From NCBI GenBank assembly GCA_963722805.1, contig CAVROQ010000033.1:198619-262618 (forward strand): a stretch of 64,000 nt of DNA, given 5' to 3'. Source of the stretch: an uncultured Gammaproteobacteria bacterium (GTDB lineage: Bacteria; Pseudomonadota; Gammaproteobacteria; Pseudomonadales; JAHEGP01). A program made the position numbers and the translations under genes. A model generated the notes under the pieces. It worked only from the letters and a program-made list of their open reading frames with translations, had not been told where the DNA came from and searched no databases. The first letter of the stretch is position 1, and each line of letters begins with the position of its first letter. Below, one piece after another: positions 28,621 to 58,501 of this stretch.

Positions 28621-31059
28621 ATGGTGCTGAGTAAGGGCGCGCTTGCCGGCATCAGGGTGCTGGAGGTCGTCGATGAAACTGCGTCCTGGTGTGGCAAGTT
28701 ATTTGCTGACATGGGTGCTGAGGTCATCCGGATCGAGCCGCCCGGCGGTGTCGCCGAGCGCAAGCGTGCGCCTTTCCTCGAAGGCATTGAGGGCGCTGAT
28801 CGCAGTCTGGCGTTTCTCAATAACAATACCAATAAGAAAAGCCTGAGCCTTGAGCTGGCGTCCGCCGCTGGAGCACAAACCTTTCGCCAGCTCGCCCGTA
28901 CTAGCGAGCTGGTGATCGAGAGTCTGCCTGTGGGTCAGCTCGCTGCGTGGCAGCTGGATTACCATCGTCTGAGAATCGACAACCCGGCGCTGGTCATGAC
29001 CTCAATCACCGGCTTTGGCCAAACCGGGCCCCACTGCCACTTTCGCAGTGCCGATATCGTGGCGGCGGCCATGGGTGGGGCCATGGCAGTTACCGGCGCG
29101 GCGCAAGATCCTCCGGTAGTGCTGGCCGGCTCCCAGTCGTATATCGCCAGCTCGACCCTGGCCGCGGTGAGCAGCATGATCGCCTTGCACCACAGTGCCG
29201 TCAGCGGCTGTGGCCAGCATGTGGATATCTCGATGCAAGAGGCCATGCTGATGGTAGGCAGCATCTGCGGGGTGGGCAAATGGCTGGAGGACGGGATGGT
29301 CCCGGCACGGTTTGGCACTGGCTTGTTTGCCTCGGTGCCCTCCGGCGCCTATGCCTGCAGTGATGGCAGCATTTACCTGATGATCAATCGACCGCGGCAC
29401 TGGCAGGCGCTGGCGCGTTGGGTAAACGAGATGACCGGCAACCGCGAAATTCTCGATCCGATGTTCGAAGGTCCATCTTCAAAGCGCCAGCCCTACCGGG
29501 AAATGCTCGACCTGTTTATCGGCGAGTTGAGCGCTGCTTATACGGTGGCTGACTTTTATCGTGAGGGTCAGCGCCGCCACCTTGCCGTTGCCCCGGTCAA
29601 TACCGGGCACAGTATTGTTGGCGATGGACACTTGCAACAACGCCAGTTCTTTGTCGAGCTGCAACATGGTGGGCATAGCCTGCGCTATCCCGGGCCGCCT
29701 TATCGCATGTCGGCGAGCCCCTGGCGCATCGCCGCTGGTGCACCGACTATCGACGAGCACAAGCCCGCCCTGGAGCAGTTGTTGCAGCGCGTGCGTGTGC
29801 CCCGCAGCAAAGCTTCGCAAGGGCGGCGACCAGCGCCGCGGGAGCGGGCTCTTGCCGGGCTGCGGGTGGTGGAGTTTACGACCGGTATGGCGGGGCCCTG
29901 GATTGGCCGGATTATGGCTTGCTGTGGCGCCGAGGTGATTAAGGTTGAGTCCCGCGACTACCCGGATGTTACCCGCCTCTATGTGCCGCCTCGCAACCCG
30001 GAACTGGGGGTGCAGTCGCAGTTGTCGCCGTGGCTGACCGACTGGAATGCCGGCAAGCGATTCGTAGGTTTGGATTTGAACCAGCCCGCAGGGCTTGAAC
30101 TGGCAAAGCAGTTGGTCGCCGCCAGCGATGTGGTGATCGACAACAATGCCAATGGCGTGCTGGACAAACTCGGACTGGGATTTGCCGAGCTACAACGCGA
30201 AAACCCCGCCCTTATCCTGCTCAGTAGTACTGGCTATGGCAGGCACGGTCCAGACTCCAATTATATCTCCTGGGGGCCGAATATTGAGGCCTTGTCGGGG
30301 CTCTCGCATTGGTCTGGCTTTGACCATCGACACTGCACCATGACCCAGTTTGCCTATCCCGACCCACTCAGCGCGCTGTATGGATTATTCGCGATCCTGT
30401 GCGCACTGCAACAGCGGAATCAAACCGGGTCTGGCCAGTGCATTGAGCTGTCGCAGCTCGAGGTGATGCTGGCCAGCCTGGGAGAACCGCTGATGAACGT
30501 TATGGCGCATGGCCGCGAGCCTGAAAAGTTGGGCAATAGCTCACTAAATTATGCGCCCCACGGTTGCTATCCCTGCGCCGGTATTGACCGTTGGTGCGTG
30601 ATTGTTGCAGCAGACCAGCAGCAATGGCGCGCCGTGTGCGAGGTATTGCAGCGCAGCGAGTGGCTGACCGATAGCCGCTTTGTCGAGCTGGCCTCAAGGT
30701 TGCGCTATCGCGATACCCTGGACGAGCTCATCGCCAGTGCCACGCATAGCTGGTGCGACTACGATTTGATGCAGGCCTTGCAGCGGCGCGGGGTGGCAGC
30801 CGGCGTGGTCCAGAATGCGGCAGATCAATACCAGCGCGATCCCCAGCTGGCTGCGCGCCACTACTTCGAAACGCTTGCCCATGCGCGCAAAGGTGAGGTG
30901 GTGGCTCCGGGTATTGCCCTGGGTCTGACGGTCACTGAGGTAAAATCGGGAGAAGCCGGGCGGGGGCCCGGGGCCGACAACAAAGCGGTTTTTTGTGGGC
31001 TTCTAGGAATAAGTCCTGCGCGCTATCGGCAATTGCGGGCAGCCGGCGTTATCCACTAA
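28621..31059 (+). CDS. Fusion of two family III (CaiB/BaiF) CoA-transferase domains, DddD-like architecture
   Basis: 812 aa. Domain 1 starts LAGIRVLEVVDETASWCGKLFADMGAEVIRIEPPGG. Domain 2 starts LAGLRVVEFTTGMAGPWIGRIMACCGAEVIKVESRD. Each is a full-length CaiB-like unit. Confidence 0.85.
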   Translation: MVLSKGALAGIRVLEVVDETASWCGKLFADMGAEVIRIEPPGGVAERKRAPFLEGIEGADRSLAFLNNNTNKKSLSLELASAAGAQTFRQLARTSELVIESLPVGQLAAWQLDYHRLRIDNPALVMTSITGFGQTGPHCHFRSADIVAAAMGGAMAVTGAAQDPPVVLAGSQSYIASSTLAAVSSMIALHHSAVSGCGQHVDISMQEAMLMVGSICGVGKWLEDGMVPARFGTGLFASVPSGAYACSDGSIYLMINRPRHWQALARWVNEMTGNREILDPMFEGPSSKRQPYREMLDLFIGELSAAYTVADFYREGQRRHLAVAPVNTGHSIVGDGHLQQRQFFVELQHGGHSLRYPGPPYRMSASPWRIAAGAPTIDEHKPALEQLLQRVRVPRSKASQGRRPAPRERALAGLRVVEFTTGMAGPWIGRIMACCGAEVIKVESRDYPDVTRLYVPPRNPELGVQSQLSPWLTDWNAGKRFVGLDLNQPAGLELAKQLVAASDVVIDNNANGVLDKLGLGFAELQRENPALILLSSTGYGRHGPDSNYISWGPNIEALSGLSHWSGFDHRHCTMTQFAYPDPLSALYGLFAILCALQQRNQTGSGQCIELSQLEVMLASLGEPLMNVMAHGREPEKLGNSSLNYAPHGCYPCAGIDRWCVIVAADQQQWRAVCEVLQRSEWLTDSRFVELASRLRYRDTLDELIASATHSWCDYDLMQALQRRGVAAGVVQNAADQYQRDPQLAARHYFETLAHARKGEVVAPGIALGLTVTEVKSGEAGRGPGADNKAVFCGLLGISPARYRQLRAAGVIH

Positions 31060-31232
31060 GCGTTTTGGGGCTATGACCCGGGTTCCCACCTGTGCTGGCC
31101 GATGAAGCCTCTGCTGGCCCCAAATGATATCGCAACGGCCGCTACAGCATTTTGCCTATCCCGGCCAACATGCGGCTGATGGCTTATCGTGGCAGGCCAC
31201 CGTGTTATTCCGCTGAGTCGAGGAAGTGCTGC

Positions 31233-32471
31233 ATGACTGCAAATCGCCCACCGCTGGAAGGCCTTCGTATAATTGAAAGCTCGCTGCTGGGCGCGGCGGC
31301 GATTTCCACCACGTTTGCCGATCTCGGTGCCGAGGTGATCAAGGTGGAGTCACCGGCGGGTGATTATATTCGTGAAATGACCTGGCCGATCATCGAGGGC
31401 GTTTCGCTGATGCACTATCACCTGAATCGCGGCAAGAAGAGTATCACCCTCGATCTCAAAACCGCCAGGGGCGTTGAGATTTATCGCGAGTTGGCGAAAG
31501 ATGCAGACGTGGTGATCGAAACCATGCGCCCGGGAACGCTCGCTAAACTCGGGCTGGGTTTTGCCGACCTGAAAAAAATAAATCCCAAAATTGTGTTCTG
31601 TACGGTGTCGGGTTATGGCTCCAGCGGGCCCTACCAGGCGATGCCGTCCCACGGCATCGCCTACGATACCTGGTCGGGTGTGGTTACCCCGGCATACGAT
31701 GACGAAGGCTTTTGCTATATTCCCGAGCATGTGTCCATTGGTATCAACGCTGCGCCACTGGTGGGCGGCCTGGCCATTCTGGCCGGTGTGTTGCGAGCCC
31801 GGGAAACCGGCGAGGGCTGTGAAATGGAATTGGGCCAGAGCGATGCCGCGGCTTATTTCGACTGGTATCGCAGCGAAAGCCATATGGCTTATGCGCGACC
31901 CGAAAACGAAGTCACCGGCAACAAGGCCGATGGCTACAAACGGCGTCCAGTCGCCACTGCGGGCATGCGGCATGGTGTGCGCTACCAGCTGTATGAAGCC
32001 AGCGATGGTCATGTGCTGTTTATGGCGTCGGAGCAGGCCTTCTGGAAAAACTTCTGTGCCGGGGTCGAGCGCATGGATCTGTTCGACAAATGGCCTGGTT
32101 CAAAGTATGCCGACCATGCCCCGGGTAATCGGCAGCTGCAGGCCGAATTGCGGGCCATATTTAAAACCCGGACCTCGGCCGGCTGGATAGCATTCAGCAA
32201 CGAGTTCAATACCCCTATAGCGCCGGTCAACACGCCGGCCACCGTGGTCGATGACCCGCAGTTCAAAGCCCGTATCAAGGTATTGCCGCACCAGCGCCAC
32301 GGTGCGGATATGCTGGCATTTCCGGTGCACTTTATGGGTGAGGAATTGCCCGAGCCCGAGAGAGCGCCGACCGCCGGCGAGCATACCGAAGAAGTGCTGC
32401 GAAATGTACTGGGTTATGAAGCTACCACTATCAATAAGCTGCGAGAGGAGGGGGTTTTCGGCGCAGGCTAG
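31233..32471 (+). CDS. Family III CoA-transferase
   Basis: ORF trimmed to ATG 31233 (GAGGAAG upstream). LEGLRIIESSLLGAAAISTTFADLGAEVIKVESPAGD and a later TGEGCE block. Confidence 0.8.
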   Translation: MTANRPPLEGLRIIESSLLGAAAISTTFADLGAEVIKVESPAGDYIREMTWPIIEGVSLMHYHLNRGKKSITLDLKTARGVEIYRELAKDADVVIETMRPGTLAKLGLGFADLKKINPKIVFCTVSGYGSSGPYQAMPSHGIAYDTWSGVVTPAYDDEGFCYIPEHVSIGINAAPLVGGLAILAGVLRARETGEGCEMELGQSDAAAYFDWYRSESHMAYARPENEVTGNKADGYKRRPVATAGMRHGVRYQLYEASDGHVLFMASEQAFWKNFCAGVERMDLFDKWPGSKYADHAPGNRQLQAELRAIFKTRTSAGWIAFSNEFNTPIAPVNTPATVVDDPQFKARIKVLPHQRHGADMLAFPVHFMGEELPEPERAPTAGEHTEEVLRNVLGYEATTINKLREEGVFGAG

Positions 32472-32709
32472 GACACTGTCTGCAGCCATTTTCGTGCATC
32501 CATTTCTCGGCTTTCTTCCCCTTGTGGCCGCGTCAACCAGGGCCCACCCGACCCAAAGCTATTGGCTAAAAAGCTGTCCTCTTCTGATATTCTTTAGGCC
32601 GCTATCGCTGCGTCGCCTGGATCAAAATTTGTCGCTATCTCGCTAGAATCTCAGTCTCCCGGTGGTCTTAACGAGCTGTGGAAAGACCTGCAGTCGGAGG
32701 TGTCACGCC

Positions 32710-33891
32710 ATGAATTTTGAATTTGCCGAGAAGGAACGGGAATTTATCCGCGAAGTGGACGAGTTTCTGGAGCAGAATCGTCACATTGATGTGATGGATG
32801 TGACTCGAGAGAACATGGCGCAAGTGTGTGACACGCCCGAGCGCCGGGCGTTTATGAAAAAGCTGGCCGATCGTGGCTGGCTGGGTATTACCTGGCCCGC
32901 GGAGCACGGTGGTCAGGAAGGCGATGGCATCTACGAATACCTGCTCAATGAAAAGCTGTCCTCGGTGGGAGCGCCGGGTATCGGCAAAGGCGTAGGCATT
33001 GTCGGCAAAACCCTTATTCGGGTCGGATCTGAAAAGCTCAAAAAGGAATTTCTGCCAAAAATCATTAACGCGCAAGTCGAGTTCGCTGTCGGCTACTCCG
33101 AGCCGAGTGCCGGTTCCGACTCGGCAGCCATGCGACTCAAGGCCGAGCGCGTCGAGGGCGGTTGGGTACTTAACGGGCAAAAGATATTTACCACTTCGGC
33201 GCACTTTGCCGACTGGTACTGGGTGGGCGCGCGCACCGATCCCGAGGCACCCAAGCACCATGGCATCAGCTTGTTCCTGGTGCCCATGGATCACCCGGGC
33301 CTGACCATACACCCCATGCCCACCATGGGCGGTGAGCGCACTAACGGGGTATTTTTTGATGATGTGTTCGTACCTGAAGATTATCTCGTCGGTGAGCTCA
33401 ACAAGGGCTTTCAATACATTGCCGAGGCGCTGGATATTGAGCGCTTTACCATGTTTACCTTTGCGCCCATTCGAGGTCGGGTTGAGCTGCTGGCGGACTA
33501 TGTGAAAAACACGGTGCGCGATGGCGTGCCCCTGAAAGACGACCCGGTGATTCGCCAGCGAGTGGCACAGTTGGTTACCGAGTGCGAGGTTGCTCGCCTG
33601 CTCGGGGTTAAGTTTGTCGACGCTGCCATCAATAGCGATAAAACGCCTACGGCTGAGGCATCCTTCTACAAGTTGTTTGCTACCGAGCTGTCCTTGCGGG
33701 TTGCCAATGCGACGATGGATATTATTGGTCCGGGTGCCCAGCTGGCTCTGGGTACTGAGGGGGCGCCACTGAATGGTCGCGCCGAGAGTTGTTACACCTA
33801 TACCGTCATCGATACCATCGGTGGCGGTTCGTCCGAGGTTCAGCGCAATATTATCGCGCGGCGCCATCTCGGCTTACCGAAAAACTTCTGA
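32710..33891 (+). CDS. Acyl-CoA dehydrogenase
   Basis: ORF trimmed to ATG 32710. GYSEPSAGSDSAAMRLKAERVEGGWVLNGQKIFTTSA and C-terminal GGGSSEVQRNIIARRHLGLP are typical ACAD blocks. Confidence 0.85.
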   Translation: MNFEFAEKEREFIREVDEFLEQNRHIDVMDVTRENMAQVCDTPERRAFMKKLADRGWLGITWPAEHGGQEGDGIYEYLLNEKLSSVGAPGIGKGVGIVGKTLIRVGSEKLKKEFLPKIINAQVEFAVGYSEPSAGSDSAAMRLKAERVEGGWVLNGQKIFTTSAHFADWYWVGARTDPEAPKHHGISLFLVPMDHPGLTIHPMPTMGGERTNGVFFDDVFVPEDYLVGELNKGFQYIAEALDIERFTMFTFAPIRGRVELLADYVKNTVRDGVPLKDDPVIRQRVAQLVTECEVARLLGVKFVDAAINSDKTPTAEASFYKLFATELSLRVANATMDIIGPGAQLALGTEGAPLNGRAESCYTYTVIDTIGGGSSEVQRNIIARRHLGLPKNF

Positions 33892-33899: not shown

Positions 33900-35060
33900 A
33901 TGGACTTCCTTCAGGGTTTAACAGTGCTTGATCTGGCCAGCGTGGGCCCGGCGGCACGAGCCTCGAGGATTCTGGCCGACTACGGGATGGAGGTGATAAA
34001 GCTGGCGCCGGTGACGGCCCATGGCGCCAAGCAGATAGACCCGGTATTTCACGCCTATGGTGCCGGGCGCGGCATGCGCAGGATTCGTCTCGATCTTAAA
34101 TCGTCAGAGGGCATAGCGGCGCTGGCTAAACTGGTTGCCGGAGTCGATGTGGTGATAGAGAGTTTTCGACCCGGCGTGGCCGAGCGCCTCGGCATCGCTT
34201 ATCAAGACTTGAAGCCGCACAATCGCCAACTTGTTTATTGTTCGACCAGTGGCTATGGCCAACAAGGTCCTTATTCACAGTGGGCGGGACACGACATCAA
34301 CTACCTGGCAGCGACCGGTTTTCTCGACTGTAGCGGCCGCGATGGCGAGGGCGTACCCGCCATGCCGGGAGTCACGGTCGCCGACAGTGCGGGCGGCGGT
34401 ATGCATGCCGCCATGGCCATTATTGCGGCGCTGCTAAACCGCTGTCGGCACAACGAGGGCGCTTATCTCGATGTCGCCGCCACCGACGGCGTGCTCAGCA
34501 TGATGTCATTATACCTTGACCAATACACCGCCACCGGCTTCGAAACCCAGTCTGGCAATGCCCTGCTGACCGGCCAGTATGCCTGGTATGGCGTGTACCC
34601 GACCGCCGACGGTAAAGCCGTGTCAGTGGGAGCCATTGAGCCGCATTTCTTTCGCAGGCTGTGTCGTCTTTTGGATCTTGGCCAATTTAGCGACAGCCAA
34701 TATGACCACGCCCGACAAGCGGACATGAAGGCAGCGTTTACCCGGGTATTCCTGACTCGCAGTCGCGACCAGTGGACTGAACGCCTGGCAGCTGAAGATA
34801 CCTGTATGGCGCCGGTGCTGAGTATTGCTGAAGTCGCGGGTGATCCCCACTACCGTGCACGCTCCAGCTTTATGACCGCACATCACCCTGAGCATGGCGA
34901 GTTCGCGCAGCTTGCACCGGTGCTGGCAGGATGTAAGCGCCAGCAGCCAGTATTCGAAATGCCCGCCACGGCCGAGACCGATAGCGACGCGGTATTTATG
35001 GCTGCCGGATTCAGCGAAGCCGAAATAGAGCATTTACGCTTGGCCGGCGTACTGGAATAG
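33900..35060 (+). CDS. Family III CoA-transferase fold protein, alpha-methylacyl-CoA racemase-like
   Basis: ORF trimmed to ATG 33900. LTVLDLASVGPAARASRILADYGMEVIKL. The WAGHDINYLAATGFL block matches the GHDINYLA signature I associate with AMACR/Mcr. An Asp-containing VTVADSAGGG block follows. Confidence 0.7.
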   Translation: MDFLQGLTVLDLASVGPAARASRILADYGMEVIKLAPVTAHGAKQIDPVFHAYGAGRGMRRIRLDLKSSEGIAALAKLVAGVDVVIESFRPGVAERLGIAYQDLKPHNRQLVYCSTSGYGQQGPYSQWAGHDINYLAATGFLDCSGRDGEGVPAMPGVTVADSAGGGMHAAMAIIAALLNRCRHNEGAYLDVAATDGVLSMMSLYLDQYTATGFETQSGNALLTGQYAWYGVYPTADGKAVSVGAIEPHFFRRLCRLLDLGQFSDSQYDHARQADMKAAFTRVFLTRSRDQWTERLAAEDTCMAPVLSIAEVAGDPHYRARSSFMTAHHPEHGEFAQLAPVLAGCKRQQPVFEMPATAETDSDAVFMAAGFSEAEIEHLRLAGVLE

Positions 35061-35065: not shown

Positions 35066-35602
35066 ATGGAGCAGCCGATGACAAACGATATTTTGGCTAT
35101 TCCCCCGGAGGTGGAGGCGCTGATCGGTGTGGTGCAATATCGTGAGCAAAGCACGTTTCCCATCGAGATGGCCTACGTCTATAACACCTGCGCTGCGGTG
35201 CAAAATGGCAATCCCTTGTTTTGGGACAGCACGGTAGCCGAGCAACTAACGGGAGGCCAGATCGCTCCGCCGACCATGATGTCAGTGTGGTTCAGGCCTC
35301 ACTATTGGGAGCCGGGTGCGGTGGGCGAGCAAAAGGCCCTGCAGGCGCACTTCGATTTAAAGGTCTTGCTGCAATTGCCCGAGGCGATCATATCTGGCAA
35401 CGAAATGGTTTTTGGTGAGCCGGTTCGACCGGGCGACATTTTGACTACCCAGCAAATCCTGCGCTCTATCAGTGAGGTGAAAACAACCCGGGTGGGACGG
35501 GGGCGTTTTTGGGTTATCGATGTTGAGTGTTACAACCAGGATGGCGGTTTTGTCGGTCGTGACATCTATTCATGCCTCGGTTACCGGAGGGAAGCCGCTT
35601 GA
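35066..35602 (+). CDS. Hotdog-fold protein, non-catalytic partner of a MaoC-type (R)-hydratase pair
   Basis: 178 aa. Adjacent to and overlapping the MaoC-like gene. The arrangement resembles heteromeric ChsH1/ChsH2-type hydratases. Confidence 0.55.
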   Translation: MEQPMTNDILAIPPEVEALIGVVQYREQSTFPIEMAYVYNTCAAVQNGNPLFWDSTVAEQLTGGQIAPPTMMSVWFRPHYWEPGAVGEQKALQAHFDLKVLLQLPEAIISGNEMVFGEPVRPGDILTTQQILRSISEVKTTRVGRGRFWVIDVECYNQDGGFVGRDIYSCLGYRREAA

Positions 35603-36087: not shown

Positions 36088-36187
36088 TTGACGCAGTGTA
36101 GTTGACGCAGTGTAACTGACGCAGTGTAACTGACGCAGTGTAACTGGCGCAGTGCAGCTGGCGCAGTGCAAACACGCAGTGCAAAGG
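36088..36187. repeat. 14-bp tandem repeat: 7 copies of the core CGCAGTG in an intra-operon gap
   Basis: TTGACGCAGTGTAG / TTGACGCAGTGTAAC / TGACGCAGTGTAAC x2 / TGGCGCAGTGCAGC / TGGCGCAGTGCAAACA / CGCAGTGCAAAGG. Cores at 36092, 36106, 36120, 36134, 36148, 36162 and 36175. Confidence 0.9.
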
Positions 36188-36215
36188 CGTGAAGCAAACA
36201 TATAGAGAGGCTGGC

Positions 36216-50918: not shown

Positions 50919-51809
50919 ATGAGTTGGAGTGATTGGAATGAGGTGGTCGGAGACGGCCTCGATAATTTCAAGGAGATTCAATACCAAAAGAAAAGCCATC
51001 TGCAGCTGGGCGGCGCAATAGCGCGGATCTCCTTGAATAAGCCTGAAAAGATGAACACCCTGACCCTGGCAACCGTGGACGAGATGTTTCGTGCTTTTTA
51101 CGATGCCAATCACGATCCGCTGATCGGGGTGATTGTTATTGCAGCCAAGGGCAAGCACTTCGGTGCCGGTGGCGATGTCGATTGGGAGCGCTGGGGTTTG
51201 CGCGAAGCATTTTACAATCGCTATCCGCACAATCGGCTGATGCGTATGTCGCGCAAGCCTGTCATTGCCCAGGTGCAGGGCTATTGTATTGCCGGTCATA
51301 ATCATATGGCCTATTGCTGCGATTTTACGATTGCCGCCGACAATGCGATTTTTGGCCAGGCCGGCCCGCGAGTGTCATCGCCGGCAGACGGGTTTTTTGT
51401 GCCCTACCTGACCAAAGTGGTGGGGGCGAAAAAGGCCCGGGAATTATGGATGCTCTGTCGCAAGTACCAGGCAGATGAAGCACTCGCCATGGGGCTGGTC
51501 AATACCGTGGTGCCGCTGTCCCAGCTGGAGGCAGAAGTTGACCAGTGGTGTGAGGAAATGCTGTCCCTCAGCCCGGGTTGCCTTGAGGTACTCAAGGCCG
51601 CTTTTGACCAGGAGATGGATGGCTATAAGGAGTCCTGTGTGACCTCGGCGGCAATGTATCCCGACTGGTTCGATATGCCCGAGGGTAAGGAAGGTGGCGC
51701 GGCTTTTGTTGCCAAGCGCAGGCCCGAGTTTTGGGATATCCGCCAGCGCGAGTCCCAGATGAGGCAGCAGTTGCTGGACGAATACGATGTGCTGCATGGT
51801 GGGGAATAG
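50919..51809 (+). CDS. MenB/BadI-subfamily crotonase (1,4-dihydroxy-2-naphthoyl-CoA synthase-like)
   Basis: 296 aa. DFTIAADNAIFGQAGPRVSSPADG and KKARELWMLCRKYQADEALAMGLVNTVVPL closely track the MenB signature blocks as I recall them. Confidence 0.75.
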   Translation: MSWSDWNEVVGDGLDNFKEIQYQKKSHLQLGGAIARISLNKPEKMNTLTLATVDEMFRAFYDANHDPLIGVIVIAAKGKHFGAGGDVDWERWGLREAFYNRYPHNRLMRMSRKPVIAQVQGYCIAGHNHMAYCCDFTIAADNAIFGQAGPRVSSPADGFFVPYLTKVVGAKKARELWMLCRKYQADEALAMGLVNTVVPLSQLEAEVDQWCEEMLSLSPGCLEVLKAAFDQEMDGYKESCVTSAAMYPDWFDMPEGKEGGAAFVAKRRPEFWDIRQRESQMRQQLLDEYDVLHGGE

Positions 51810-51853: not shown

Positions 51854-53017
51854 GTGTTTAAAGACAAGGCGTGTATTGTGGGCATTGGCGAGACAGCCTA
51901 CTGTCGCAAACCCGGCTCGGGAATGTCTGAGGAGGCTTTGCAGTTACGCGCCTCGGTGGCGGCCTTGATTGACGCCGGTCTTACCGGGCAGCAAATTGAC
52001 GGCATATTGGCGTTTCCCAATGTGGGCAAATCCGAGGCATTCGCCGCTAGCCTGGGTTGTGACAATTTGCGCTTCGCCGCCACTATCCACATGGGCGGCG
52101 CTGCACCGCTGGCCTCGCTGCGGATGGCGGCCATCGCTGTGGCTTCAGGCGCTGCCAACTATGTGTTGATTCCCGGGGGTTGGAATGGCTATTCGGGTGC
52201 CCGGGTGCGGCAGACAGTGTCTAACGATAAAAACTCGATTCCGGGAGGCGCCATTGCCTGGGATTACTATATGCCGCAGGGCCTGACTGCACCGCCCCAG
52301 TGGTATGCGCTGATGGCCCGGCGCCATATGCACGATTTCGGGACTAGCCACGAGCAGTTAGGCGCGGTTGCGGTGGCGATGCGCAAACATGCCCAGCTCA
52401 ACCCCGCTGCCTTAATGTACGGCAAGCCCCTGGATATCGAACAGTACCTCGCCTCCCCGATGCTGGCCGACCCCTATCGTATTAATGACTGCTGTCTGGA
52501 AACCGATGGCGCTGCCGCATTTATTGTGACCACAGTAGAGCGGGCCAATGATCTTGGCCGGCAGCCAATCTATATTATGGGCGCCGCCGCGGGACAGCCC
52601 TACCCGGCAGACGATTTTACCAACCGTCGAGATTTTCACCGCAACGGTTTGTCGATTGCCGCCCCCGAAGCATTTGCAATGGCCGGTATCAAACCGGGCG
52701 ATGTCGATTTTGCCCAGATCTATGACTGCTTTACCTTTGAGGTGATCCAGCAACTCGAGGAAGCGGGTTTCTGTGAGCGCGGTGACGGTGGCGCTTTTGT
52801 CGAGAATGGCGGGATTGAACTCAAGGGCCAGCTACCGGTGAATACCCACGGAGGACTGCTTTCTGAAGCCCACTCCCTCGGCATAGGTCATGTGGTCGAG
52901 GCCGTAAAACAGCTGCGCGGAGATTGCGGCCAACGCCAGGTGTTAAATGCCGAGATCGGCGTTGTCACCGGCTGGGGCGATTTTGGCGACGGCAGTATTG
53001 CTATTTTAAGGCGTTGA
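51854..53017 (+). CDS. Thiolase-like protein (SCP-x type), second copy
   Basis: ORF trimmed to GTG 51854. ACIVGIGETAYCRKPG...NTHGGLLSEAHSLGIGHVVEAV. Followed by a DUF35 gene. Confidence 0.8.
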   Translation: MFKDKACIVGIGETAYCRKPGSGMSEEALQLRASVAALIDAGLTGQQIDGILAFPNVGKSEAFAASLGCDNLRFAATIHMGGAAPLASLRMAAIAVASGAANYVLIPGGWNGYSGARVRQTVSNDKNSIPGGAIAWDYYMPQGLTAPPQWYALMARRHMHDFGTSHEQLGAVAVAMRKHAQLNPAALMYGKPLDIEQYLASPMLADPYRINDCCLETDGAAAFIVTTVERANDLGRQPIYIMGAAAGQPYPADDFTNRRDFHRNGLSIAAPEAFAMAGIKPGDVDFAQIYDCFTFEVIQQLEEAGFCERGDGGAFVENGGIELKGQLPVNTHGGLLSEAHSLGIGHVVEAVKQLRGDCGQRQVLNAEIGVVTGWGDFGDGSIAILRR

Positions 53018-53031: not shown

Positions 53032-53445
53032 ATGGACCGGGAATATGACAAGCCACTACCGGGGCTCGACGGTTTAAACGGGCAGTTTTATGCCTTTTGC
53101 AAACAGCAGGATCTGCATTTCCAGCGCTGCAGCAACTGTCAACACTTTCGCCACGTTCCGCGGGAAGTCTGCGCGGTATGCAACTCCTTCGAGTGGGATT
53201 GGGTGCGCGCCAGTGGCAGAGGCAAGGTATACAGCTGGACCGTTATCGAGCGAGCGTTGCACCCGGCGTTTGTTGCTGACACGCCGCTGGCGCCGGTGAT
53301 CGTTGAAATGGAAGAGGGTGTGCGCTTGCTGGCAAATATGCTCGATTGCCCGCCGGCTGAACTCGCTATCGATATGCCGGTGACCATTGCCTACGAGGCG
53401 GTCACTGAAGACCTGACGCTGCCGCGCTTCCGGCGCATTGAGTAA
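53032..53445 (+). CDS. DUF35 OB-fold/zinc-ribbon protein, second copy
   Basis: ORF trimmed to ATG 53032. Zn-ribbon CSNCQHFRHVPREVCAVCNS followed by an OB-fold segment. Confidence 0.75.
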   Translation: MDREYDKPLPGLDGLNGQFYAFCKQQDLHFQRCSNCQHFRHVPREVCAVCNSFEWDWVRASGRGKVYSWTVIERALHPAFVADTPLAPVIVEMEEGVRLLANMLDCPPAELAIDMPVTIAYEAVTEDLTLPRFRRIE

Positions 53446-53462: not shown

Positions 53463-54242
53463 ATGGATTTGAAACTGCCAGAAACTTTTAGTTACGAGAA
53501 GCGCGGGCATATCGCCATTATGACGATCAATCGTCCCCAGGCGATGAATGCCTTCACCGCTGAAATGCTGGCGGCCATGGATGCCTGCTTTGAAGATTTC
53601 CAGCACGATGATGAACTGTGGGTAGCGATACTGACCGCCACTGGCGATAAATCGTTTTGTTCCGGCATGGACCTGGGGGAGGCTATTCCGCTGCTCAATG
53701 CCGGCGATGAAATGGGCTATGAGGATCATACCAAGCGCCCGTTTTCTGATGTATTCAAGCCCATCATTGCCGCCGTAAACGGTTTTTGCATCGCCGGCGG
53801 TATGGAGTTTATGCAGGGAACTGACATTCGTATTGCCGTCGAACACGCCACTTTCGGGCTCGGCGAAGTGCGCTTCGGATTGATTCCCACCGGCGGTACC
53901 CACGTACGGCTGCCACGCCAAATACCCTGGGCGGTGGCCATGGAATTGCTGTTGACCGGCGAGAATATATCAGCCCAGCGCGCATATGATATTGGCTTGA
54001 TCAACAAGATTGTGGCAGCGGAAGAGCTGCTGGAGGAGGCGCTGAAGTTGGCCGAAAAAATCTGCCGCAATAGCCCGCTGGCAGTGCGCACCGCCAAGGA
54101 AATAGCCGTGCGCCAGGCCAATCTTGAACCCGGTTTCGTGTTGGAAAAAGCCATTGGCGCAAGGGTATTCGGTTCCTATGACGCCCAGGAAGGACCCAAA
54201 GCATTTATGGAAAAGCGCAAACCTGAATTCAAGGGCCGCTAG
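53463..54242 (+). CDS. Enoyl-CoA hydratase/isomerase (crotonase)
   Basis: 259 aa. IAIMTINRPQAMNAF...TATGDKSFCSGMDL...AAVNGFCIAGGMEF...FMEKRKPEFKG. Confidence 0.85.
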   Translation: MDLKLPETFSYEKRGHIAIMTINRPQAMNAFTAEMLAAMDACFEDFQHDDELWVAILTATGDKSFCSGMDLGEAIPLLNAGDEMGYEDHTKRPFSDVFKPIIAAVNGFCIAGGMEFMQGTDIRIAVEHATFGLGEVRFGLIPTGGTHVRLPRQIPWAVAMELLLTGENISAQRAYDIGLINKIVAAEELLEEALKLAEKICRNSPLAVRTAKEIAVRQANLEPGFVLEKAIGARVFGSYDAQEGPKAFMEKRKPEFKGR

Positions 54243-54282: not shown

Positions 54283-55545
54283 ATGACTGAAACGACTGCA
54301 AGCGGGCCATTGGCCGGGCTGCGAGTGCTGGACCTGTCAACCATGCTGGCTGGACCGTATGGCGCAACCTTGCTGGGAGACCTTGGCGCCGATGTGATTC
54401 GCATCGAATCGCACTACGGCGATGAGAGTCGTCATCTGGGGCCCAGGCGTGGCACTGAGCGGGGCCCTTATTTGAGCCTCAATCGCAGCAAGCGCGCCAT
54501 GGTGCTTGACCTGCAGCAGCCGGGCGGACGGGAAGCCTTCGCCAGGATTGCGAAAACCGCCGACGTGCTGATTACCAATATCCGTGAGCCGGCGCTGAGC
54601 AAGCTGGGTTTGGATTACGAAAAAGTACTGGCCATAAAGCCCGATATCATCTGGATCAGGGTCACTGCATTCGGACCCGATGGTCCCTATGCCGGTCGGC
54701 CGGGGATCGACTTTCTTGCCCAGGGCTATACCGGCGTGCTGGCATTAAACGGCGAGCCGGATGGGGAGCCTGTGCGCACCGGTTTTCCCGCGGTGGATGT
54801 AATGACCTCATTGTTGGTGAGCAACGGAGCGTTGGCGGCATTGCGGGAGCGCGACGCCAGCGGCAAAGGGCAGCGTATTGAAATTTCCCTGCTTGATGCC
54901 CTGATGCACGCCCAGGCCAGTTCGATCGGTACTTACCTTGCGACCGGAGAGGCGCCGGCTAGAACCGGCAATCGCAGTTTGTATTTTGCACCCTCGGGAG
55001 TCTACCCAACCCGCGATAACCAGTACGTGGTGATTACCACGCCCGCGGAAAAATTTTTCGTTAAGCTGTGCCAGGCACTGGAAACCGATTGGTATCAGGA
55101 TACTCGCTTCCATTCCATTACCGCCCGGCTGGACAACCAGGATGAGCTCGACAGACTGTTGGGCGCGCGCACTGCCCACTTTAGCCGGGTGGAGCTGGTG
55201 GATCGCTTGATCGCGGCGGATGTGCTGACGGCGCCCATTAATAAGGTCGAAGACGTGGTGCGGGACCCGCAGATTCTGCACAACCGGATGATTACCCAGG
55301 TACAGCATCCCACCCTGGGTGAAGTCGGGGTTACCGGGGTGCCCATCCGGTTTTATGGTACTCCCTGTGAAGTGCGAAAACATCCGCCGTTGCTGGGTGA
55401 GCACACCCGGGAATTACTGCTTGAAGCCGGCTACACCGAAGCGGAGATCACTGAACTGATAGCATCGGGCCTGGCTGCCGATCATGCCGAGATCGAGCGT
55501 CAGCGCGCCGCACGCCGGGCGCGTAAAGCGCCCCGGAGCCCTTAA
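54283..55545 (+). CDS. Family III CoA-transferase
   Basis: 420 aa. LAGLRVLDLSTMLAGPYGATLLGDLGADVIRIESHYGDE. Asp block GFPAVDVMTS...SGKGQR. Confidence 0.85.
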   Translation: MTETTASGPLAGLRVLDLSTMLAGPYGATLLGDLGADVIRIESHYGDESRHLGPRRGTERGPYLSLNRSKRAMVLDLQQPGGREAFARIAKTADVLITNIREPALSKLGLDYEKVLAIKPDIIWIRVTAFGPDGPYAGRPGIDFLAQGYTGVLALNGEPDGEPVRTGFPAVDVMTSLLVSNGALAALRERDASGKGQRIEISLLDALMHAQASSIGTYLATGEAPARTGNRSLYFAPSGVYPTRDNQYVVITTPAEKFFVKLCQALETDWYQDTRFHSITARLDNQDELDRLLGARTAHFSRVELVDRLIAADVLTAPINKVEDVVRDPQILHNRMITQVQHPTLGEVGVTGVPIRFYGTPCEVRKHPPLLGEHTRELLLEAGYTEAEITELIASGLAADHAEIERQRAARRARKAPRSP

Positions 55546-55550: not shown

Positions 55551-57068
55551 ATGGGTGCAGCAAATGTCTTTCGTCCCCTCGCGGGCTGGCAGTTATCAAT
55601 GCCGGCCCCGGAGTCGGTTGCCGATGCATATGCAAACCAATTATTGCGTGACCTGGGTGCCGGACTACCCGATCCCGTCATTGGCAATACCGTTGACGCG
55701 GCATTGGCCTGGGCCGACTCGGGCTTAATGTTCCTCTGTGGTGAGCTGAACCAGCCCCCACGACAGGGGCCCGGTGCGATTCCCTCCTGTGCCCGCGGGG
55801 TGATCAGTGCCATTCGAATGTTGGCGCCGCAAACCTTGTCCTCGGATATCGATGGTGCACTTTTACTGAGCGAACGAGCGGCCATGCTGGGCTTGCATGC
55901 CAGGGGCTCGATGTCGCCGAATCAAAGCTGCCGCGTGTTGCCCAGCCTGGATGGCTGGCTGGCGCTGAACCTGGCGCGTCGAGAAGATTGGCTCTCGTTG
56001 GCGGCATGGTTACAAGCTGATAAGCCGATAGATAATTGGGATAGCGTCCGCCAGGCCGTGGCGCAGCGATACACCAATGAACTGGTCGAGCGTGGCCGAT
56101 TATTGGGTTTGCCCCTCGCGGCGGCCAAGGTCACCACCAAAACTGCAAAGCCCTGGTTCAGGCTGCAGCAGCGCGGATGGCAGCGACCGCCACCTGCCGC
56201 AACAACCGGGCCGCTGGTAATCGATTTGTCATCACTGTGGGCTGGCCCACTGTGCAGCCACTTACTGCAGCAGGCAGGTGCGCGGGTGATCAAGGTTGAG
56301 AGTTTGCAACGACCCGACGGGGCCCGGCCCAGCGGGGTGCCGCCCGACGGGGCCCGGCCCGGCGGGGCCCGGCCCGGCGGGGTGCCGCCCAGCGGGGTGC
56401 CGCCCAGCAGGATGCACCCCGACGAGTCGCAAGCAGATCTTACCGGTTATAGCGATTTCTATCATTTGCTCAATGCCGGAAAATCCTCTGTGGCCCTGGA
56501 TTTCTCCCGTCCCGAGGGAGTGCGTCAATTGCAGGCGCTGCTGCGCCATGCAGATATCGTTATCGAGGGGTCGCGCCCGCGGGCGCTGCAGCAACTGGGT
56601 ATCGACGCCGGGGCCATCGTGCAGTCGAAACCCGGCCTGGTCTGGCTGGGAATCAGTGGCTACGGGCGCAGCCAGCCTGAAGCCAATTGGGTGGCCTTTG
56701 GTGACGATGCGGCGATGGCGGCGGGTGTCGCCAATACCGGGGCCAGCTCGCCGCTGTTTGTGGGTGATGCCCTGGCTGACCCGCTCTGTGGTGTGCATGC
56801 TGCGCTACTGGCGTTGGCCTGTTGGCGCGCGGGTGAAGGCGCTCTGCTGGACATATCACTGCACGACGTGGCGGCACATTGCCTGGCCTATGCCCCGAGC
56901 ATTGTGCAAGGAGATGTTGTTGCCGGCCCTGGACAGCAATGGCAGTTTGCCATTGCCGGACACAGCACCCAAATAAGAAAACCACAGGCGCGCCGCCCCT
57001 TGCAACTGGCTGCCAGGCTGGGCGCAGATACTCGCACTGTGCTGCGGGAGTTTGCGATTCCATGTTAA
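55551..57068 (+). CDS. Atypical family III CoA-transferase-like protein with rearranged domain order and a pentapeptide-repeat insertion
   Basis: 505 aa. The N-terminal ~200 aa align by eye to the distal large-domain plus small-domain part of a CaiB unit (SGLMFLCGELNQPP..., LPSLDGWLALNLARREDWLSLAAWL). The C-terminal ~280 aa start with the normal head (LVIDLSSLWAGPLCSHLLQQAGARVIKVES) and keep the Asp block (FVGDALADP...AGEG), but lack a small domain. Confidence 0.65.
   Translation: MGAANVFRPLAGWQLSMPAPESVADAYANQLLRDLGAGLPDPVIGNTVDAALAWADSGLMFLCGELNQPPRQGPGAIPSCARGVISAIRMLAPQTLSSDIDGALLLSERAAMLGLHARGSMSPNQSCRVLPSLDGWLALNLARREDWLSLAAWLQADKPIDNWDSVRQAVAQRYTNELVERGRLLGLPLAAAKVTTKTAKPWFRLQQRGWQRPPPAATTGPLVIDLSSLWAGPLCSHLLQQAGARVIKVESLQRPDGARPSGVPPDGARPGGARPGGVPPSGVPPSRMHPDESQADLTGYSDFYHLLNAGKSSVALDFSRPEGVRQLQALLRHADIVIEGSRPRALQQLGIDAGAIVQSKPGLVWLGISGYGRSQPEANWVAFGDDAAMAAGVANTGASSPLFVGDALADPLCGVHAALLALACWRAGEGALLDISLHDVAAHCLAYAPSIVQGDVVAGPGQQWQFAIAGHSTQIRKPQARRPLQLAARLGADTRTVLREFAIPC
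56316..56420. repeat. In-frame 15-bp tandem repeat, 7 units, inside the CoA-transferase-like gene
   Basis: GACGGGGCCCGGCCC / AGCGGGGTGCCGCCC / GACGGGGCCCGGCCC / GGCGGGGCCCGGCCC / GGCGGGGTGCCGCCC / AGCGGGGTGCCGCCC / AGCAGGATGCACCCC. Encodes DGARP-SGVPP-DGARP-GGARP-GGVPP-SGVPP-SRMHP. Confidence 0.9.
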
Positions 57069-58501
57069 TAAAGTCAGCGGAGTTGGCAGGGGAGCTGGTC
57101 GATCTGCGAGTCGCGCAAGGTCTGATTGCCGAGCTGGGAAAAAACCTGGTACCACGGCCGCAGGAGCGGATCATCGATGCCGCTGGCGGCGCAGTTTTAC
57201 CGGGCCTGCACGATCACCATATACATTTGTTTGCACTTGCTGCCGCCCGTAGCTCAGTGATGTGCGGTCCACCTGAAATAAATAACCGGGCGGAGTTGGC
57301 TGAGGCTTTGCTAAAGCAGCCGGGTAGCGGTTGGCTGCGGGGTGTGGGCTACCACGACTCGGTGGCCGGCTCGCTTGATCGCTGGCAGCTGGATAAATTG
57401 TTGCCGAACCGGCCGTTACGTATTCAGCATCGCAGCGGCAAGATGTGGATTTTGAACAGCCTGGCAATGGCGCATTTGGGGTTAGATATCGAGAGCGAGC
57501 TTCCTGGTATTGAACGCGACGCCGCAGGTCGGGCGAGCGGTCGCTTGTTTCGTATGGATGACTGGCTTGCTTCGAAGCTGGTGCGCCAGCCGCCACCCGG
57601 GCTTGGTGTGCTGTCCCGTGAGCTGGCGAGCTACGGCTTGACCGGCCTTACCGACACCAGCGCAAGTAATTCAAGCGCTGCGATGGCAGCGCTACAGCAG
57701 GCCCTGGAGCGGGGAGAGTTGCTGCAGCGTTTGCTGGTAATGGGTACCCTCGAACTACCCGCAGGTTCACACCCCTTGCTGCAGCGCGGTGCAGTAAAAA
57801 TCTTACTGGATGATCATCACCTGCCCGACTACGACCAACTGCTTGCGACCGTGTCACAGGCGCATCGCCAGCAGCGCGCAGTCGCCATCCATTGCATCAC
57901 CCCCACTGAGCTGGTGTTCGCTGCCACTGCCCTGCTGGAAGCGGGAGCGGTTGCTGGTGATCGGATTGAGCACGCCTCGATAGCCCCGGATGAGACACTG
58001 CCATTGCTGTATAGGGCCGGCGCAACCGTGGTGACCCAGCCGGGATTCCTGTGGCAGCGTGGTGAGCAGTACCTGCGCGATGTCGCTGTTGCTGAACAGC
58101 CCTTGTTGTACCGCGGCCAGGCATTTCTCAATGCGGGTATTCCGCTGGCGGGTAGCAGCGATGCGCCCTATGGTGATGCCGACCCATGGCTTGCCATCAG
58201 GGCGGCGGTGCAGCGGCAGACTGCTGGCGGTGTTGAAATTGGCGCGGCGGAAAAACTGTCGCCGGAGCGGGCCCTGGCATTGTTTACCACCCCGGCCACT
58301 GCGCCCGGAAGTACCCCCCGGGCGATTGAGGTGGGAGCCATTGCCGACCTCTGTCTACTGGATCGTCCCTGGCAAAAAGCCAGGCAACGTCTTTGTAGTG
58401 CCGACGTATTTGCCACAGTGCGCAGCGGTGAGTTGATATACCAGCGTGAGCCCTCATGCCGCGGATGCAATATCCTGGCTAGCAAAGGGCAGATAGTCTG
58501 A
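57062..58501 (+). CDS. Amidohydrolase-3 family metal-dependent hydrolase
   Basis: ORF trimmed to ATG 57062, overlapping the upstream stop by 7 nt. VLPGLHDHHIHLF metal-binding HxH motif. About 479 aa. Confidence 0.7.
   Translation: MLIKSAELAGELVDLRVAQGLIAELGKNLVPRPQERIIDAAGGAVLPGLHDHHIHLFALAAARSSVMCGPPEINNRAELAEALLKQPGSGWLRGVGYHDSVAGSLDRWQLDKLLPNRPLRIQHRSGKMWILNSLAMAHLGLDIESELPGIERDAAGRASGRLFRMDDWLASKLVRQPPPGLGVLSRELASYGLTGLTDTSASNSSAAMAALQQALERGELLQRLLVMGTLELPAGSHPLLQRGAVKILLDDHHLPDYDQLLATVSQAHRQQRAVAIHCITPTELVFAATALLEAGAVAGDRIEHASIAPDETLPLLYRAGATVVTQPGFLWQRGEQYLRDVAVAEQPLLYRGQAFLNAGIPLAGSSDAPYGDADPWLAIRAAVQRQTAGGVEIGAAEKLSPERALALFTTPATAPGSTPRAIEVGAIADLCLLDRPWQKARQRLCSADVFATVRSGELIYQREPSCRGCNILASKGQIV

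Follow-up and report, generated by a model that had tools for sequence, protein, structure and literature searches.

The window analysed here is a 64-kb stretch of a contig (CAVROQ010000033.1) from an uncultured gammaproteobacterium, and its positions 28621-58501 carry nine genes of family III CoA-transferases interleaved with other genes of acyl-CoA metabolism. With a probability of roughly 0.65, we read this region as the CoA-thioester part of a supercluster by which the steroid nucleus would be degraded without oxygen on the 2,3-seco route. The steroid nucleus is proposed as substrate because of the synteny with the 2,3-seco cluster of Thauera terpenica 58Eu; this cultured denitrifier degrades androgens and possesses genes similar to atcABC (PMC5554518). 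In its presumed working, and for the most part by homology, the region corresponds to the 2,3-seco clusters that denitrifying steroid degraders carry. The functional unit is judged to be a supercluster of about 49 kb (window positions about 11.6-60.3 kb) that holds two syntenic modules, module 1 and module 2, since linked genes, among them an ETF alpha gene, a putative ring-A hydrolase gene and a regulator gene, are situated outside 28621-58501. An initial annotation of the letters had taken 28621-58501 as a self-contained island with a substrate not deducible from sequence. These boundaries did not hold: etfA, a membrane oxidoreductase, the ring-A hydrolase homologue, an AMP-forming ligase, XdhC/MobA and a KstD-like dehydrogenase lie beyond them. 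The synteny also gives the substrate a direction, towards the steroids that were already among the candidates of that annotation. Its general view, a CoA-thioester catabolism of an alicyclic substrate with ring-opened acids in need of (re)activation, we judge to be right. New here are a gene-to-step proposal, a second conserved module, and conserved transferase domains without catalytic Asp, including fusions, among the nine genes.

Module 2 and the adjoining genes comprise the following features (CT, family III CoA-transferase gene, numbered by position; the basis of each assignment is given in brackets):

42257-43156, minus strand: F420-dependent luciferase-like oxidoreductase (LLM), predicted from sequence by its score (TIGR03619, 196.9 bits against a cut-off of 166.9)
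43199-45196, minus strand: Fe-S flavoenzyme of the old yellow enzyme (OYE) family, FadH/BaiCD/NCR type, 665 aa (Pfam, NCBIfam, PDB)
45378-45897, minus strand: PF04075 protein, F420H2_quin_red, FDOR-A (Pfam)
45937-46734, minus strand: beta subunit of an electron-transfer flavoprotein (ETF), etfB (Pfam)
46797-47084, minus strand: conserved 95-aa open reading frame (ORF) without family, between the NMO gene and etfB (49-63 % identity in L005, L007, L013, L039 and L040)
47097-48203, minus strand: FMN enzyme of NMO/FabK type, enoyl reductase or dehydrogenase (Pfam, NCBIfam)
48480-49670 and 49686-50897, plus strand: transferase pair CT6 and CT7 (Pfam, alignment)
50919-51809, plus strand: MenB/BadI-like crotonase, candidate acetate-releasing C-C hydrolase (Pfam, NCBIfam)
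51854-53017 and 53032-53445, plus strand: Sal/Ltp2-like retro-aldolase of thiolase fold and its DUF35 partner, as predicted (PDB, motif)
53463-54242, plus strand: EchA19-like enoyl-CoA hydratase, ECH19 (Pfam; NCBIfam 282.7 bits against a cut-off of 400)
54283-55545, plus strand: CT8, SUGCT-like family III CoA-transferase with Asp172 (Pfam, PDB match)
55551-57068, plus strand: CT9, degenerate N-half and a partial C-terminal domain with Asp (Pfam, alignment)
57062-58501, plus strand: Amidohydro_3 hydrolase, paired with CT9 (Pfam)
58544-60250, minus strand: AcmB-like 3-ketosteroid Δ1-dehydrogenase, KstD-like (PDB 7P18)

The module itself consists of a minus-strand set (NMO, 95-aa ORF, etfB, FDOR, OYE and LLM) and a plus-strand set (CT6, CT7, the MenB-like crotonase, the aldolase-like protein, DUF35, ECH19 and CT8). 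At the locus of T. terpenica 58Eu (L065), FDOR and OYE (67 % identity) are accompanied by a string of CT6 (69 %), CT7 (74 %), MenB-like crotonase (83 %), aldolase-like protein (79 %), DUF35, ECH19 (64 %) and an Amidohydro_2 protein (78 %), further on by a transporter gene of the major facilitator superfamily (MFS), and by a group of the SUGCT-like CT8 (77 %), an AtcA-like large subunit and Fer2. The matches at this locus have overall 62-83 % identity, DUF35 52 %. Module 2 recurs at 60-90 % amino acid identity in Halieaceae, Steroidobacteraceae, Rhodocyclaceae/Sterolibacterium and 'delta' metagenome-assembled genomes (MAGs). The most conserved gene of the cluster codes for the MenB-like crotonase (83-90 % identity in relatives), and orthologues more than 80 % identical were found in Seongchinamella sediminis, Pseudohalioglobus lutimaris, Steroidobacteraceae and Thauera terpenica/butanivorans. 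The first two of these species carry enzymes similar to the steroid ring-A β-diketone hydrolase (SRAH) and are putative steroid degraders (Jacoby et al., PMC11780191). A scan of the genome collection with the OYE sequence yielded 36 loci in which the identity is 60-79 %; their sources are Sterolibacterium, Halieaceae, Steroidobacteraceae and Rhodocyclaceae as well as Geobacter-labelled and 'delta' MAGs. Homologues with 67-79 % identity adjoin CoxLMS and SRAH-like genes. One locus (L014) has CoxM-S-L, Amidohydro_2, the aldolase-like protein, DUF35 and ECH19 in a single co-directional string, a second (L036) has OYE, CT6, CT7, CT8 and the MenB-like gene beside CoxM-S-L and Amidohydro_2, and a third (L016) links CoxMSL with OYE, CT6, CT7 and CT8. 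In S. sediminis (L039), module 2 surrounds the genes of a molybdoenzyme of CoxLMS type together with XdhC/MobA and a KstD-like gene.

For the 2,3-seco route, five steps that follow ring opening have been described without assigned enzymes: activation by a CoA ligase or transferase, dehydrogenation of the acyl-CoA, hydrolytic release of acetate, hydration of the enoyl-CoA and release of acetyl-CoA by an aldolase (PMC11780191). The same study placed candidate genes for these steps in SRAH/1-TDH clusters and left the enzymes of ring B unassigned. The plus-strand operon of module 2 would map one-to-one onto the unassigned ring-A steps. In the proposed sequence of reactions, the AcmB-like dehydrogenase (Δ1 dehydrogenation) and the BaiCD/FadH-type OYE with its FDOR partner (Δ4 reduction) would prepare ring A, and a molybdo-hydratase/dehydrogenase encoded outside the window together with the Amidohydro_2 hydrolase would open it to the seco-acid DSAO. 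CT6/CT7, a pair with a single catalytic Asp, would convert DSAO to DSA-CoA without consumption of ATP. A flavin dehydrogenase, either an acyl-CoA dehydrogenase of module 1 or the NMO-type enzyme, may introduce the 4-ene, and its electrons would pass over ETF alpha/beta to a membrane Fe-S/CCG oxidoreductase. The MenB/BadI-like crotonase is predicted to release acetate from DSA-4-en-CoA by retro-Claisen hydrolysis, the EchA19-like hydratase to add water and yield 5-OH-SDA-CoA, and the Sal/Ltp2-like aldolase with DUF35 to split this compound in a retro-aldol reaction into acetyl-CoA and STA. Each newly freed acid could be re-activated by one of the repeated CoA-transferases. A 3-hydroxyacyl-CoA dehydrogenase would not be needed, because the C-C cleavages in this scheme are hydrolytic or aldolytic, not thiolytic.

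The best match of the aldolase-like protein in the PDB is the steroid aldolase Ltp2 (6OK1, 1.4e-70). It has a YDCF motif with Tyr and Cys and an Ile in the column of the thiolase nucleophile; both features are kept in the orthologues. The Tyr/Cys catalytic dyad has been defined for CtSal (PMC12329534), and the Y-D-C-F motif with Tyr as base and Cys as acid is shared with CtSal and TbSLP. Without a nucleophilic Cys and with the Tyr/Cys dyad, the protein should be incapable of thiolysis and is predicted to catalyse a retro-aldol reaction on a 3-hydroxyacyl-CoA; a short-chain dehydrogenase/reductase (SDR) is then unneeded, since aldolytic cleavage replaces thiolysis. Aldolytic cleavage has been reported for steroid side-chain breakdown in these denitrifiers (PMC6208644). 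The Sal-Shy(DUF35) and Ltp2-ChsH2(DUF35) systems likewise combine a thiolase fold lacking the nucleophilic Cys with a DUF35 partner. Unlike in these systems, the DUF35 protein of the window is a stand-alone protein of 137 aa and not the C-terminus of a MaoC hydratase, the position of Ltp2 Tyr344 is occupied by a His, and the predicted substrate is the remnant of ring A (5-OH-SDA-CoA) rather than a side chain.

Large Fe-S flavoenzymes of the OYE family are known as steroid Δ4 (de)hydrogenases (PMC8399759). The OYE of the window contains the motif C353-x2-C-x2-C-x15-C; among the neighbours of the molybdoenzyme, it is conserved most tightly. Together with the FDOR protein we propose it as candidate 3-oxosteroid Δ4 reductase, because of its Fe-S motif, its BaiCD/5-beta-delta-4-KSTD architecture and its conservation beside the molybdoenzyme, and because the Δ4 reductase of the pathway is unassigned while steroid Δ4 (de)hydrogenases of this family exist. 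With BaiCD, 5-beta-delta-4-KSTD, FadH and 2-naphthoyl-CoA reductase (NCR) it shares Oxidored_FMN, the CxxCxxC...C motif and Pyr_redox. It differs from BaiCD and the mycofactocin-OYE in that it stays below the respective cut-offs (316 against 825 and 439 against 793), and from the BaiCD family in its pairing with the PF04075 FDOR gene, found in 30 of 37 loci, often along with a TIGR03619 LLM. The AcmB-like protein at 58544-60250 aligns over its full length with 3-oxosteroid 1-dehydrogenase 7P18 (8.8e-134). Where cluster proteins match a solved structure, the best homologue is usually a steroid enzyme (7P18, Ltp2, ChsH2/ChsH1 and MCR); exceptions are the OYE and the proteins that resemble MenB, FabK and SUGCT. 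In a count of six genes with such a match, five point to a steroid enzyme (AcmB, Ltp2, ChsH1/2 and MCR, and the SRAH-like hydrolase), and the sixth, the OYE, to naphthoyl-CoA reductase.

PF02515 (CoA_transf_3) was matched in nine ORFs with scores of 140-562 bits (Pfam gathering cut-off 23.3), and 11 domains result from the Pfam search of the window ORFs when the alignment of the N-half of CT9 is included. Besides CT6 to CT9 listed above these are:

28621-31059, plus strand: CT1, fused two-domain family III CoA-transferase, 812 aa (Pfam, MAFFT alignment)
31233-32471, plus strand: CT2, family III domain (Pfam, alignment)
33900-35060, plus strand: CT3, alpha-methylacyl-CoA racemase of MCR/AMACR type, as predicted (PDB 1X74, catalytic residues)
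37481-38692 and 38715-39956, plus strand: adjacent transferase pair CT4 and CT5, Asp in both (Pfam, alignment)

The N-half of CT9, about 215 aa, escapes Pfam, yet it aligns with the other domains; the C-terminal domain covers only the positions 4-206 of the PF02515 profile. The column of the catalytic Asp, equivalent to Frc Asp169 and MCR Asp156, was located in a MAFFT alignment of the 11 domains with SUGCT, anchored on MCR His126/Asp156. It lies about 30 residues downstream of a GxD motif that is easily mistaken for it; this motif was rejected as the catalytic site, since the alignment of CT3 with MCR places His126 there. Seven domains have Asp in the catalytic column (CT1C with Asp581, CT3, CT4, CT5, CT7 and CT8 each with Asp172 in the case of the latter two, and CT9C). 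Four domains lack it: CT1N has Tyr174 in this column, CT2 an Asn or a gap, CT6 a His and CT9N a Ser. Among the orthologues, the position in CT1N is occupied by F/G/Y/C/W/H, in CT2 always by Asn (4/4) and in CT6 by His, Gln or Tyr, never by Asp, and the Asp is invariant in orthologues of CT1C, CT4, CT5, CT7 and CT8. The losses are not regarded as decay, because these domains are kept without Asp in the orthologues of other genomes. CT1N is nearest to CT4 (29 %) and CT1C to CT5 (36 %), so that CT4/CT5 are paralogous to the halves of CT1; L052, one of the relatives, encodes these halves by two genes. The sequences show a pattern of pairs, either heteromeric or fused, whose active site is apparently provided by one of the two members. 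CT6/CT7 is probably a heteromeric CoA-transferase with one catalytic subunit, and we infer the formation of heterodimers from the interlocked-dimer architecture of the family. Adjacent paralogues of the same family that activate an acid from an earlier C-C reaction are known from benzylsuccinate CoA-transferase BbsEF; in comparison, the Asp loss here is conserved in one partner of three units (CT1N, CT6 and CT9N), and two units are gene fusions. Conserved partner domains without Asp, together with the fusions, offer a useful case of family III transferases evolving into heteromers. The CT9-Amidohydro_3 pair is kept in L052 with 54 % and 45 % identity. CT9 also contains a 30-bp coding repeat (3.1 copies, 56313-56405), which forms a Pro/Gly/Ala/Arg-rich insert in the transferase domain; a 5-nt indel in this repeat divides CT9 into two in metagenome contig L001, which is 99.6 % identical to the window.

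CT3 is filed as racemase, not as transferase, because both racemase residues are kept and MCR and Far are its nearest solved relatives. Its best PDB match is the MCR of Mycobacterium tuberculosis (1X74, 1e-59) with His126 and Asp156 aligned, and the equivalents of both residues are present in 4/4 orthologues. In difference to the M. tuberculosis enzyme, the predicted racemase is located in a transferase-rich operon. The initial annotation had counted nine transferase genes with about 11 domains, four of them without the catalytic Asp by eye. Pfam and the anchored alignment reproduced these counts at the same coordinates; PF02515 is present in all nine, and only the classification of 33900-35060 as a transferase had to be given up. 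The interleaved set it listed was recovered with Pfam and NCBIfam as well: two acyl-CoA dehydrogenases, three crotonases (one MenB/BadI-like), a MaoC pair, the Amidohydro_3 amidohydrolase, the FadH/BaiCD-like Fe-S flavoenzyme, the NMO/FabK-like protein, the LLM and etfB. Of its thiolase/DUF35 pair, the thiolase fold and the DUF35 protein are present, the former in a Sal/Ltp2-like version without nucleophilic Cys and not as a thiolytic enzyme. The PF04075 gene at 45378-45897, the 95-aa ORF at 46797-47084 and a secreted 352-aa protein at 40010-41068 had been overlooked. In agreement with its statement that hydroxyacyl-CoA dehydrogenase, transporter and regulator are missing, Pfam detected no adh_short/3HCDH, transporter or regulator gene within 28621-58501, and no SDR gene anywhere in the 64-kb window. 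With respect to regulation this is true in the literal sense and fails functionally, since homologues of the AraC gene at 24453-25454 directly precede CT1 in relatives.

The upstream part of the supercluster (11.6-24.4 kb) contains the following genes:

11653-13644, minus strand: membrane Fe-S/CCG oxidoreductase similar to ETF:menaquinone oxidoreductase, EMO-like (Pfam, hydrophobic segments)
13741-14934, minus strand: thiolB, SCP-x-type thiolase (Pfam Thiolase_N, Thiolase_C)
14938-15381, minus strand: DUF35 partner of thiolB (Pfam OB_ChsH2_C, zf-ChsH2)
15396-16370, minus strand: ETF alpha subunit, etfA (Pfam ETF, ETF_alpha)
16710-17678, plus strand: Amidohydro_2 protein, probable SRAH homologue (Pfam)
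18312-19856, plus strand: AMP-forming acyl-CoA ligase (Pfam)
21577-22758, minus strand: ECHlong, crotonase with N-terminal extension (Pfam)
22819-24350, plus strand: XdhC and MobA, molybdenum-cofactor maturation (Pfam)

The sole etfA of the window is separated by 30 kb from its partner etfB and belongs to a different operon. The same split is observed in relatives, where etfA is grouped with the genes of DUF35, the thiolase and the EMO-like protein, whereas the NMO gene and a conserved ORF of 91-95 aa accompany etfB. Since the etfB gene inside the region has only this etfA as a partner, the supercluster is treated as one unit. The EMO-like protein combines a 4Fe-4S dicluster with two CCG domains and contains hydrophobic segments at the N-terminus; its gene is syntenic with thiolB, DUF35 and etfA in L034, L043 and L047 (62-67 % identity). 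ThiolB keeps the nucleophilic Cys in an AGC motif at the nucleophile column and is 78-84 % identical to proteins of loci adjoining an OYE gene. The Amidohydro_2 protein, probably a homologue of the steroid ring-A hydrolase, has 81 % identity to a 339-aa amidohydrolase of Sterolibacterium sp. and 78 % to the product of the cluster gene in T. terpenica 58Eu; in L014 and L036 the gene follows directly after CoxMSL. The AMP-forming ligase (63-72 % identity) is co-located with the long crotonase and with OYE or CT1 genes in L016, L051, L052 and L056, and ligase, ECHlong and XdhC/MobA (18.3-24.4 kb) with module 2 genes in L016, L039 and L052. In S. sediminis, ECHlong adjoins CT6/CT7 and CoxLMS, and XdhC/MobA adjoin the KstD-like gene.

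With the 2,3-seco clusters of denitrifiers the window shares the SRAH homologue (78-81 %), the AcmB-like dehydrogenase and the string of T. terpenica type. In contrast to these clusters, it has no AtcABC genes, the SRAH homologue is placed 30 kb from the string to which it is fused in T. terpenica, and the host is a Halieaceae-like gammaproteobacterium with an MtrCAB-type cluster. The uptake genes are a further difference. At the T. terpenica locus (2553-7219 and 15569-16804), outer-membrane genes of the DUF1302 and DUF1329 families, a gene of the Ferric_reduct family and the MFS transporter gene are present, and none of the four types occurs in the cluster of the window. Present there and absent here, they are seen as a variable accessory of the cluster type. 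Conversely, the window possesses module 1 in addition, which measures 14 kb and contributes five further genes of family III.

Module 1 has the order CT1, CT2, ACAD1, CT3, MaoCa, MaoCb, ACAD2, CT4, CT5, a variable gene and ECHa. Apart from the transferases and the racemase given above, it includes:

24453-25454, plus strand: AraC-family regulator (Pfam)
32662-33891, plus strand: acyl-CoA dehydrogenase 1, ACAD1 (Pfam; 80-83 % identity to L043-L047)
35066-35602 and 35572-36087, plus strand: pair of MaoC-fold hydratases, overlapping genes (Pfam)
36189-37382, plus strand: acyl-CoA dehydrogenase 2, ACAD2 (Pfam)
40010-41068, plus strand: secreted protein without family, 352 aa (signal-peptide-like hydrophobic segment)
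41369-42199, plus strand: crotonase ECHa, final gene of module 1 (Pfam; 77-82 % identity to L043-L047)

In four metagenome contigs (L043, L044, L046 and L047), module 1 was recovered by tblastn as a single block with 58-83 % identity. Directly upstream of it, these contigs carry AraC, then Amidohydro_2 (77-81 % identical), and still further upstream the unit of etfA, DUF35, thiolase and Fe-S/CCG oxidoreductase, a COXG gene and a KstD-like gene. The AraC gene is located directly 5' of CT1 in L041-L046, L050 and L051 (60-75 % identity) and is probably the regulator of module 1. The best PDB matches of the MaoC pair are the steroid side-chain hydratases ChsH2/ChsH1 (1.6e-13, the match being MaoCb). 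With a racemase, a ChsH-like hydratase, two acyl-CoA dehydrogenases and four transferase genes, the module suits a methyl-branched acyl-CoA. It probably handles a further methyl-branched seco-acid, derived from ring B, a later ring or the side chain; a choice between ring B, later rings and side chain would be a guess.

Several observations weigh against the steroid interpretation. A search with tblastn found no CoxL/M/S homologue in the window, the type expected for AtcABC, the 1-testosterone hydratase/dehydrogenase (1-TDH) of the xanthine-oxidase family; the molybdo-structural genes are part of the cluster in T. terpenica, S. sediminis and L016. Of the features of a 2,3-seco cluster, the SRAH homologue, the AcmB homologue and the synteny with a cultured degrader are present, and AtcABC is the one lacking within the window. 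SRAH-like genes without 1-TDH were judged insufficient for the pathway (PMC11780191). The Amidohydro_2 identities refer to homologues and not to the characterised SRAH WP_154715975.1, and one copy of the Sterolibacterium amidohydrolase (P0147) occurs in an unrelated context with no adjoining AtcABC gene, the latter point being counted neither for nor against. The curated NCBIfam cut-offs are reached neither by the transferases nor by the crotonases, the KstD-like protein (518 against 789) or the BaiCD-like protein; for the Amidohydro_2 protein no NCBIfam model exists. The best solved homologue of the OYE is 2-naphthoyl-CoA reductase, not a steroid enzyme. Module 2 has no acyl-CoA dehydrogenase of its own, and in the 10-kb flanks of the T. 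terpenica locus module 1 was not seen. Compared with L001, a 1-nt insertion at 45498 shortens the FDOR product to 133 aa (L001 and L040, 172 aa); the cause is either an error of assembly or a pseudogene at strain level. All assignments of substrate and steps derive from synteny and homology.

On account of the missing AtcABC genes, the unmet cut-offs, the NCR-like OYE and related caveats, a non-steroid substrate keeps some weight: an alicyclic or terpenoid compound, e.g., a cyclic 1,3-dione, a naphthenic acid or a diterpenoid, could be degraded by the same chemistry, with a β-diketone hydrolase, CoA transfer and cleavages of retro-Claisen and retro-aldol type, in an organism that is no steroid degrader. 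SRAH-like genes do occur in organisms that lack 1-TDH and were judged non-degraders (PMC11780191), and the family of KstD includes desaturases of cyclohexanone-carboxylates. We consider this unlikely, for the characterised SRAH converted virtually no simple cyclic diketones (PMC11780191), XdhC and MobA imply a molybdo-hydroxylase elsewhere in the genome, the AcmB-like protein matches 7P18 over its full length, and the synteny with the cluster of a proven androgen degrader is gene for gene, with 64-83 % identity.

A steroid pathway in which module 2 acts on later rings, B or C/D of HIP type, is a less probable alternative. The MenB-like crotonase would in that case be EchA20-like and the NMO-type enzyme IpdC-like. 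IpdC is an enzyme of NMO type, and the hydrolase of ring D belongs to the crotonases. With its several transferases and the additional hydrolase (Amidohydro_3), the cluster would fit such a role, and the enzymes of ring B are unassigned in the literature (PMC11780191, PMC8399759). Against this stand the positions in T. terpenica and L014, where the string adjoins, and is co-directional with, the genes of the ring-A hydrolase and the AtcA-like protein, and the one-to-one correspondence of five activities with the five unassigned steps of ring A.

The analogy drawn in the initial annotation, a β-oxidation of aryl- or alkyl-succinates of bbs/bns type or of alicyclic dicarboxylates of thn type, is very improbable, and the region is not such a system. 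The resemblance is real at the level of parts: paired transferases, thiolase fold with DUF35, crotonases and acyl-CoA dehydrogenases recall BbsEF, BbsAB, BbsH and BbsG, chains of BbsEF are among the PDB matches, and the OYE resembles NCR. The marks of the Bbs pathway (BbsA-H), however, namely a thiolytic BbsB, the SDR BbsCD and linkage to a fumarate-adding enzyme, are missing from the window; glycyl-radical and carboxylase genes are absent from the whole 64 kb. With the BbsB model, the protein of thiolase fold scores 108 bits (cut-off 750), it has no nucleophilic Cys, and the syntenic partners are steroid genes. Unrelated neighbouring operons with a chance richness in one paralogous family are equally improbable: the cluster has at least three transcription units, lineage-specific insertions (the decarboxylase/channel pair described below; IS110, sulfatase and LLM absence in L040) and modules that are apart in some genomes, but both modules are syntenic in many genomes, their adjacency recurs (L046 and L040, with CT2 beside module 2 in L008), and etfA and etfB are divided between the upstream unit and 28621-58501.

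Steroid hormones and sterols persist in anoxic sediments and wastewater. Under the steroid interpretation, the cluster provides candidate genes for the Δ4 reductase and for the five enzymes from DSAO to STA, with a conservation that extends from Thauera to Gammaproteobacteria of marine and sediment habitats and to 'delta' MAGs: the Fe-S OYE with FDOR, the single-Asp CoA-transferase pair, the MenB-like hydrolase, the EchA19-like hydratase and the Sal-like aldolase with DUF35. These candidates could widen the set of markers beyond atcA and SRAH for monitoring anaerobic steroid removal.

At 2218-10221, about 1.4 kb from the gene of the EMO-like oxidoreductase, the window contains a cytochrome cluster with an MtrC-like outer-membrane multihaem cytochrome of 806 aa, an MtrB/PioB porin of 795 aa, two further multihaem cytochromes (one EB_dh) and a NapC/NirT (CymA-like) cytochrome, which suggests extracellular electron transfer in the same organism. 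A far-reaching and rather doubtful extension of the steroid interpretation would be a Halieaceae-like host that oxidises the steroid nucleus anaerobically through the adjacent conduit of MtrCAB/CymA type, with ATP-sparing heterodimeric single-Asp transferases and with module 1 as the ring-B route from STA to HIP. Electrons of the acyl-CoA dehydrogenases would flow through the split ETF alpha/beta to the EMO-like oxidoreductase. If true, this would extend the 2,3-seco pathway beyond the denitrifiers and account for the loss of steroids under iron-reducing conditions without detection of atcA.

The GC content of 28621-58501 (0.55-0.62) is similar to that of the remaining window (0.54-0.61), hence the region is not a compositional island, and horizontal acquisition as such an island was rejected. 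An integrase or insertion sequence (IS) element was not detected in the window. A scan for promoters and terminators gave no more matches than expected from shuffled sequences and did not inform on operon limits. The relative L040, with about 91 % nucleotide identity, keeps the overall gene order; an IS110 transposase is inserted between CT4 and CT5, and the LLM gene is absent. In the same contig (12176-21236), a sulfatase of 621 aa and a 645-aa protein without family are inserted before the final crotonase of module 1; the sulfatase may point to the use of sulfated steroids.

Between AraC and CT1, the minus strand carries genes of a pyridoxal phosphate (PLP)-dependent decarboxylase and a two-pore-type K+ channel (25646-28180). 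Relatives lack the pair at this position and have AraC and CT1 side by side, which indicates a lineage-specific insertion. The 101-bp gap between the MaoC pair and ACAD2 is mostly occupied by a tandem repeat (36089-36168) of the 14-bp unit TGACGCAGTGTAAC with 5.7 copies and 92 % matches. The motif is found nowhere else in the window, and four matches were reached in 0 of 100 shuffles. The variable gene of module 1 (40010-41068), whose place is taken by an LLM-like gene in relatives, codes for a protein, about 320 aa in secreted form, without sequence match in Pfam, NCBIfam or PDB. A representative search returned 383 family members, and the family has three invariant residues, one Trp and two Cys; the AlphaFold 2 model is confident with a pLDDT of 86, and Foldseek against the PDB gave no match at E<=0.001. 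A LIP/alpha-beta-hydrolase (61553-62964) is encoded by a single gene of 468 aa in L001 and divided into ORFs of 327 and 130 aa in the window by indels around 62491-62625.

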